A DNA stretch of 64,000 bases from Eledone cirrhosa (Eukaryota). The first letter of the stretch is position 1; each line of letters begins with the position of its first letter. The notes beneath the pieces are model-generated. The model saw nothing but the letters and a program-made list of their open reading frames with translations, was not told the origin of the DNA and did not search any database. The stretch lies in contig OZ024745.1 of the NCBI GenBank assembly GCA_964016885.1, forward strand, positions 77,252,001 through 77,316,000, written 5' to 3'. A program made the position numbers and the translations under genes. Shown piece after piece: positions 37,643 through 37,838 of this stretch.

Positions 37643-37838
37643 ATAGGAACAAGTAAGACCCCGACGGTTGAGCTCAAGCCGTTTCGACGGCTAATTCTAG
37701 TCCAGAAATAGCCGTCGAAACGGCTTGAGCTCAGCCGTCGGGGTCTTACTTGTTCCTATTACCCACTCTACTACCCTAAGTATTGAGTACTTTGGTGCGT
37801 TATGGTCCACCTGGTTCCTTACCACTTTTCCTTCGTTG
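37643..37838 (+). mobile_element. GC-rich 56-bp-arm hairpin (mirrored 3' half-hammerhead) + 80-bp tail
   Basis: Arms 37643-37698 and 37704-37759, loop AGTCC. Copies at 40774-40969 and 55351-55555. Confidence 0.85.

Follow-up and report, generated by a model that had tools for sequence, protein, structure and literature searches.

What kind of sequence carries one half of a hammerhead ribozyme twice, as mirror images, and how is such a mirror made? This is the question raised by positions 37643-37838 of the window (the whole 64,000-nt stretch of Eledone cirrhosa DNA analysed here). The 196-bp hairpin consists of two 56-bp arms (37643-37698 and 37704-37759), which are mismatched at two pairs (37668/37734 and 37694/37708) and separated by a 5-nt spacer (37699-37703); about 80 nt of unique sequence follow 3′ of the arms, and the whole insertion is embedded in a long (TA)n tract. 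When this stretch was folded together with its TA flanks, the z-score was -22.45 and none of 200 shuffles folded as well. The original prediction of a 56-bp palindrome holding the 3′ half of a hammerhead was correct: the plus strand of the right arm carries GAAAC at 37717 and GTC at 37737-37739, and CTGANGA is absent from both strands of 37631-37850, which leaves the window copy without the catalytic 5′ strand of a type I hammerhead. The GAAAC...GTC half also lies on the minus strand, as claimed, with the qualification that a private change at 37668 breaks one stem III pair there. At the gathering score, Rfam gave no match to the half hammerhead in the window, the only match being tRNA-like (50492-50555, plus strand, 30.8 bits, just over the Rfam cut-off), likely the head of a SINE; the output of a repeat finder run on the window was dominated by TA.

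Compared with a natural long copy of the same element (L017), the right arm is identical at 138 of 140 positions, and the 5-nt spacer turns out to be part of it. We counted element positions back from the end of the tail (site B = 0, site A = -80, C17 = -100, U3 = -183); the right arm is then natural element sequence from -140, and the left arm natural sequence from -80 to -135. The features are as follows.

37445-37642, no strand: left (TA)n target.
37643-37698, minus strand: inverted tail-less arm, from site A (-80) back to -135, with one private change at 37668.
37699-37838, plus strand: tailed arm, from -140 (the A of an Inr-like motif and likely transcription start) to site B.
37709-37716, plus strand: 3′ strand of the hammerhead's stem II, with C11.1 as its last base, as placed by the constrained fold of the complete L017 motif.
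37717-37739, plus strand: G12-A13-A14-A15.1, stem III with its palindromic loop, and U16.1-C17, with the predicted cut between 37739 and 37740.
37740-37759, plus strand: 3′ strand of stem I, then sequence up to site A, the point at which tail-less arms join (TA)n through a common TAT.
37760-37839, plus strand: 80-nt tail, from site A to site B, which in tandem units continues toward the ORF.
37839-38278, no strand: right (TA)n target.
40774-40969, plus strand: second, identical hairpin copy within a 3.1-kb tandem duplication, not an independent insertion.
55349-55557, plus strand: older-subfamily hairpin insertion of the same Penelope-like family, with its own junction.

The hairpin is almost certainly the end of an abundant Penelope-like element (PLE), an identity absent from the original prediction. 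The unit of this PLE is 3,629 bp long, encodes a reverse transcriptase (RT) with a C-terminal GIY-YIG domain and lands in (TA)n, and the 196-bp type of hairpin is its commonest short insertion form. The RT (YRDD) and VIY...YIG motifs could be read in the natural copies L124, L128, L129 and L132, in a single ORF with the RT before the GIY-YIG; in L124, L127 and L128 we found an ORF with the RT, linker cysteines and GIY-YIG, together with pLTR repeats. Most copies seen have frameshifts or truncations. Scans of the family's own ORF pieces against Pfam, NCBIfam and PDB gave no match; 556 homologues were found, without names, and atlas neighbours carry PF00078 (RT) and PF01541 (GIY-YIG). In the genome of about 3 Gb, the hairpin stretch returned 1,071 candidates, and exact patterns returned 2,867 tail-less arm ends, 472 tail ends (one variant) and 362 arms with a young complete core, while a looser core pattern gave 5,324 matches.

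The layout is that of an EN+ PLE. According to the parts of PMC8557442 and PMC3846280 that bear on insertion structure, EN+ PLE insertions of the Neptune/Nematis type have a pLTR, an inverted 5′-truncated copy and a tail. Like these elements, the present family has an RT followed by GIY-YIG, a cysteine-rich linker between RT and EN (CNC...CPL...C), pLTRs arising from partial tandems, an inverted 5′-truncated copy at the 5′ end, a tail at one end, a hammerhead motif within the pLTR, TATA- and Inr-like motifs in the pLTR and a microsatellite target, here the (TA)n flanks. It differs from what those parts describe in its tail, which is 80 nt long rather than 30-40, and in that most insertions consist of two arms only. 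On its motifs, the family may provisionally be called Neptune-like.

Several other features of the window lie beside this family. The region from about 36000 to 42700 is a tandem duplication (period about 3,131 bp, 98% over 3,565 bp). It either arose recently or is an artefact of assembly, and the two hairpins in it have the same private changes. Pieces of other Penelope-like families lie at 9826-11691 (minus strand; weak GIY-YIG match, E 0.0019, 33% identical to the hairpin's family) and at 49333-49731 (plus strand). A 1,195-codon open frame at 15945-19532 (minus strand) has the look of a non-LTR retrotransposon (endonuclease and RT, by eye); other fragments of its family occur elsewhere. An exon-like ORF at 25134-25502 (plus strand) resembles the C-terminal region of GPR158/GPR179 (E 3e-6), and 12316-12687 may be a further exon of this GPR158/GPR179-like gene.

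We examined the ribozyme in complete relatives, in which CCCC and the core are followed by stem II, whose loop measures about 37 nt, then by GAAA, stem III (6 bp), GUC and GGGG. Under constrained folding, the complete motif of L017 forms a three-way junction with a type I core, GAAA and UH present, whereas its unconstrained fold is not a hammerhead (-27.9 vs -26.3 kcal/mol). The loop II of these relatives is closed by the true 5′ strand that follows the core, and AGTCC lies in the 3′ part of the loop. Hence, the helix originally taken for stem II, with AGTCC as its loop, is not a ribozyme helix but the mirror junction, its 5′ strand being the mirrored arm. Longer relatives were also expected to have CUGANGA directly before that mirrored stem; the catalytic 5′ half is indeed present upstream, but not as that sequence in that position. 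Among the first 100 of the 5,324 core matches, read by eye, 73 were U3-A8, 24 C3.A8, 3 U3.G8 and none C3-G8, and core position 7 varied freely among the matches listed. The C3.A8 cores, about one quarter of the matches listed, are mismatched at the catalytic pair, which should impair catalysis. They form an amplified subfamily, possibly a step between C3-G8 and U3-A8, and could serve as a natural control for the need for the ribozyme.

A U3-A8 hammerhead variant occurs in the Schistosoma PLE Cercyon (PMC4209133), and a U3-A8 hammerhead is active in vitro (PMC3088659), as stated in the portions of these papers that concern the variant. Like Cercyon and other PLE hammerheads as portrayed there, the present motif combines a U3-A8 core with a short stem I, a long stem II, G10.1-C11.1 and a palindromic loop III, and its motifs lie close together on opposite strands. 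Unlike the PLE hammerheads in that portion of PMC4209133, it has a full 6-bp stem III, which could allow it to act as a monomer, a likely promoter within its loop II (about 37 nt), and a sizeable C3.A8 subfamily.

To see how the mirror forms, we took a census of arm junctions (76 pairs parsed, 11 dropped as mis-parsed, 65 kept). The arms overlap in 40 of the pairs, have an insert between them in 23 and are joined blunt in 2, and the 65 junctions are of 57 distinct types; since the junctions differ between copies, the hairpin is built anew at each insertion. The tail-less arm was the longer in 20 of the 65 pairs and the tailed arm in 22, the two being within 3 nt of each other in 23, and the tailed arm ended 3′ of site A in 5. 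The original prediction was that the DNA copy had folded back at stem II and primed itself. An origin during DNA synthesis near stem II holds, but self-priming fits poorly with these pairs: a folded-back cDNA cannot copy what it never held, so that two primings are needed unless sequence was deleted later. Palindromes are known to lose sequence, and such a deletion could make the arms unequal. Fold-back, with a single cDNA or an antisense transcript turning back near stem II to serve as its own template, would also agree with the 40 overlapping junctions and with arms that are nearly always of one subfamily haplotype (in 150 pairs, 100 identical, 4 discordant between common types and 46 with private changes). 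This sharing fits both models alike and does not separate them; when two RNA templates were looked for, 4 of 104 common-haplotype pairs were discordant, three of them at a single site. Against fold-back, the mirror ends at a fixed site A, which matches the target, and an antisense template would give no reason for ends at the cut of the sense-strand ribozyme. Self-priming has been proposed in the relevant section of PMC3846280, and an antisense transcript for rotifer PLEs. We consider fold-back quite unlikely here, and two-sided priming, with two cDNAs, one from each target end, is very probably the better fit.

Some individual loci stand apart. In L145, the arms differ at two subfamily-diagnostic sites, which could reflect two RNA templates or a nested insertion, and where the arms of L218 and L117 meet there are 15 or more A or T in a row, which suggests that the cDNA end was tailed without a template. 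In L005 (about 1100-1320) and L016 (about 1440-1500), the 5′ junction contains host sequence from the upstream flank in inverted orientation, as though the target's free end had turned back to copy itself before it was joined to the element.

We then looked at where the arms end. One class of ends lies at -99, the base after the predicted scissile bond. Five end patterns of one design gave raw match counts of 129 at -102, 112 at -100, 668 at -99, 176 at -98 and 39 at -95. Judged by eye, per 100 matches listed, point mutants, run changes or joins made up about 60 at -102, about 50 at -100, at most 23 at -99 and about 57 at -98. When the first 30 of the -99 ends were read directly, 28 were true truncations, some of them in mini-hairpins with symmetric arms and others joined to flank or to longer arms. 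The class is small, with 4 clear cases in 123 arms; by haplotype, in a small sample, there were 0 clear cases in 32 arms for the haplotype that includes the C3.A8 cores vs 5 in 188 for two young haplotypes. Taken from the genomic DNA, the -99 peak quite likely records self-cleavage of the ribozyme in the living animal.

The much larger class of ends lies in loop II. For 135 arms in 120 position-ordered loci, 118 ends fell between -134 and -144, with -145 and -146 empty, the others lying at -147 to -149 (3), beyond (9) and at -130 to -133 (5); among position-ordered tail-less arms, 16 of 99 ran to -149 or beyond. Two Inr-like motifs overlap here, and their A bases fall at -144 and -140. A TATA-like run lies 29 nt before -140; it is not kept in all subfamilies and is lost in older ones. 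In run X1, one of three runs from a single study whose contigs do not show starts, strand or level, -140 was the commonest loose end of loop II among those listed (42 vs 24 and 20). A 3′ splice site at -140/-139 was considered as the cause of these ends, as its pyrimidine tract and YAG fit, and was rejected because the arms copy sequence upstream of it and the inserts contain no recurrent exon.

The base before the ends provides a further indication. At -140, among 100 ends listed, it was G in 20 and A in 5 (beyond the other arm or the target, G 10 vs A 1), whereas at -99 it was G in 12 and A in 28 (Fisher p 0.0001 against -140, or 0.007 with 13 G-run expansions kept), the extra-G classes being assigned by eye and after the fact; the comparison was limited to G vs A because subfamilies with a templated T confounded the pattern. 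An extra G has been attributed to copying of the cap in L1 and SVA, in the part of PMC3287187 that deals with it, and an excess of G before -140 with none before -99 is the pattern so attributed. Support from this pattern is moderate, because the loop II ends spread over 11 nt, 13 of 63 junctions have a 4-nt overlap of the same length that blurs -144 against -140, and the classing came after the fact. On this DNA evidence it is fairly probable that the main transcription start lies at the Inr-like motifs in loop II.

Hence, we propose, as reasonably likely, that the hairpin consists of two target-primed cDNAs, one per cut end, whose synthesis ran off at the RNA 5′ end and which were then linked head to head. 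The endonuclease would cut (TA)n on its two strands, with each resulting 3′ end priming at site A or site B on the sense RNA; both sites have TAT in common with the target. A main transcript starting at -140 or -144 would carry only the 3′ half of the ribozyme, since its start lies within loop II, and run-off would give hairpins such as that in the window. Read-through RNA from upstream would hold the whole ribozyme and, once cut, would start at -99 and give still shorter hairpins; if uncut, or as circular RNA, it could give long, partly tandem copies. Host end-joining would close the junction.

The two clusters of ends could also reflect stalling of the RT by RNA structure (stem III at its base, and a loop II contact), with the PLE product still made by two primings, so that they would not mark RNA 5′ ends. 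A stem III stall is the main rival for the -99 peak, as -99 and the foot of stem III (6 bp) are two bases apart, and the spread of the loop II ends would suit stalling as well. However, an RT halted by stem III would be expected to have copied C17, which is unpaired, and there were 112 matches at -100 vs 668 at -99; the edge at -144 is hard, and the preceding base differs between the two clusters. We therefore regard stalling as unlikely. A hairpin that propagates itself as a non-autonomous element or works as an RNA (MITE-like, a retrozyme, a trans-cleaved substrate or a small-RNA precursor, the last two having been suggested originally) would account for thousands of copies, for a very stable hairpin if transcribed, and for the kept GUC site and sites A and B. 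Such an element should have a common junction, and here there are 57 types in 65 pairs; the window copy has neither the catalytic half nor tandem ribozyme units, and one of its three private changes breaks a stem III pair, making this reading very unlikely. As regards the named classes, a MITE, with fixed internal structure and inverted repeats at both ends, was rejected on the 57 junction types in 65 pairs and the 80-nt tail outside the inverted repeat. A non-LTR retrozyme consists of short tandem units, each with a complete hammerhead, in the relevant part of 10.64898/2026.07.22.740005; it was rejected since the window copy has no complete motif and what was seen in tandem is the coding element of 3,629 bp. 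The window copy is most likely a dead, minimal PLE insertion without function.

Two-sided, target-primed synthesis has a biochemical parallel in the Anolis Poseidon PLE protein, which in vitro, in the experiments of PMC11167929 considered here, cuts both strands and extends them, with synthesis starting at two RNA sites that bound the tail. Both systems share an AT-rich target, two internal start sites bounding the tail, cutting and extension of both target strands (inferred here) and a product length that follows the template's 5′ end. In contrast to Poseidon, whose RNA start site in those experiments is not homologous to the target, both sites here have TAT in common with it; in that part of the study, RNA reads at the ribozyme cut were also absent and cleavage was not required, whereas here hundreds of insertions begin at the cut. 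Arm ends clustered in loop II and at the ribozyme cut are likewise not described in the passages of PMC8557442 and PMC3846280 that we compared. Our literature search, which covered few subscription papers and main texts only, returned no earlier account of arm ends at the cut or of PLE products resembling strong-stop DNA, and no earlier demonstration of PLE hammerhead cleavage in vivo was found within it.

In L1 twin priming, the other target end provides the second priming, and retroviral strong-stop DNA is a run-off at the RNA 5′ end from a nearby start site; compared with both, the two cDNAs here would copy the same stretch and both be integrated. The fuller reading is that the PLE promoter fires within the element's own hammerhead, that the hairpins are paired strong-stop-like cDNAs mapping the RNA 5′ ends (a capped start in loop II and the cut at -99), that U3-A8 cleavage occurs in vivo and that cut RNA serves as a template; we give this combination slightly better than an even chance.

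In summary, the hairpin itself is an ordinary dead PLE insertion, and it is the statistics of its family that carry the interest. The formation of PLE inverted ends has been unsettled between self-priming and two-sided priming, and the asymmetry of the arms favours the latter. A census of arm ends costs little, and any PLE-rich genome lends itself to the same count. If the fuller reading is true, this genome would be a fossil record of U3-A8 PLE hammerhead cleavage in vivo, and of cut RNA as a template for retrotransposition.
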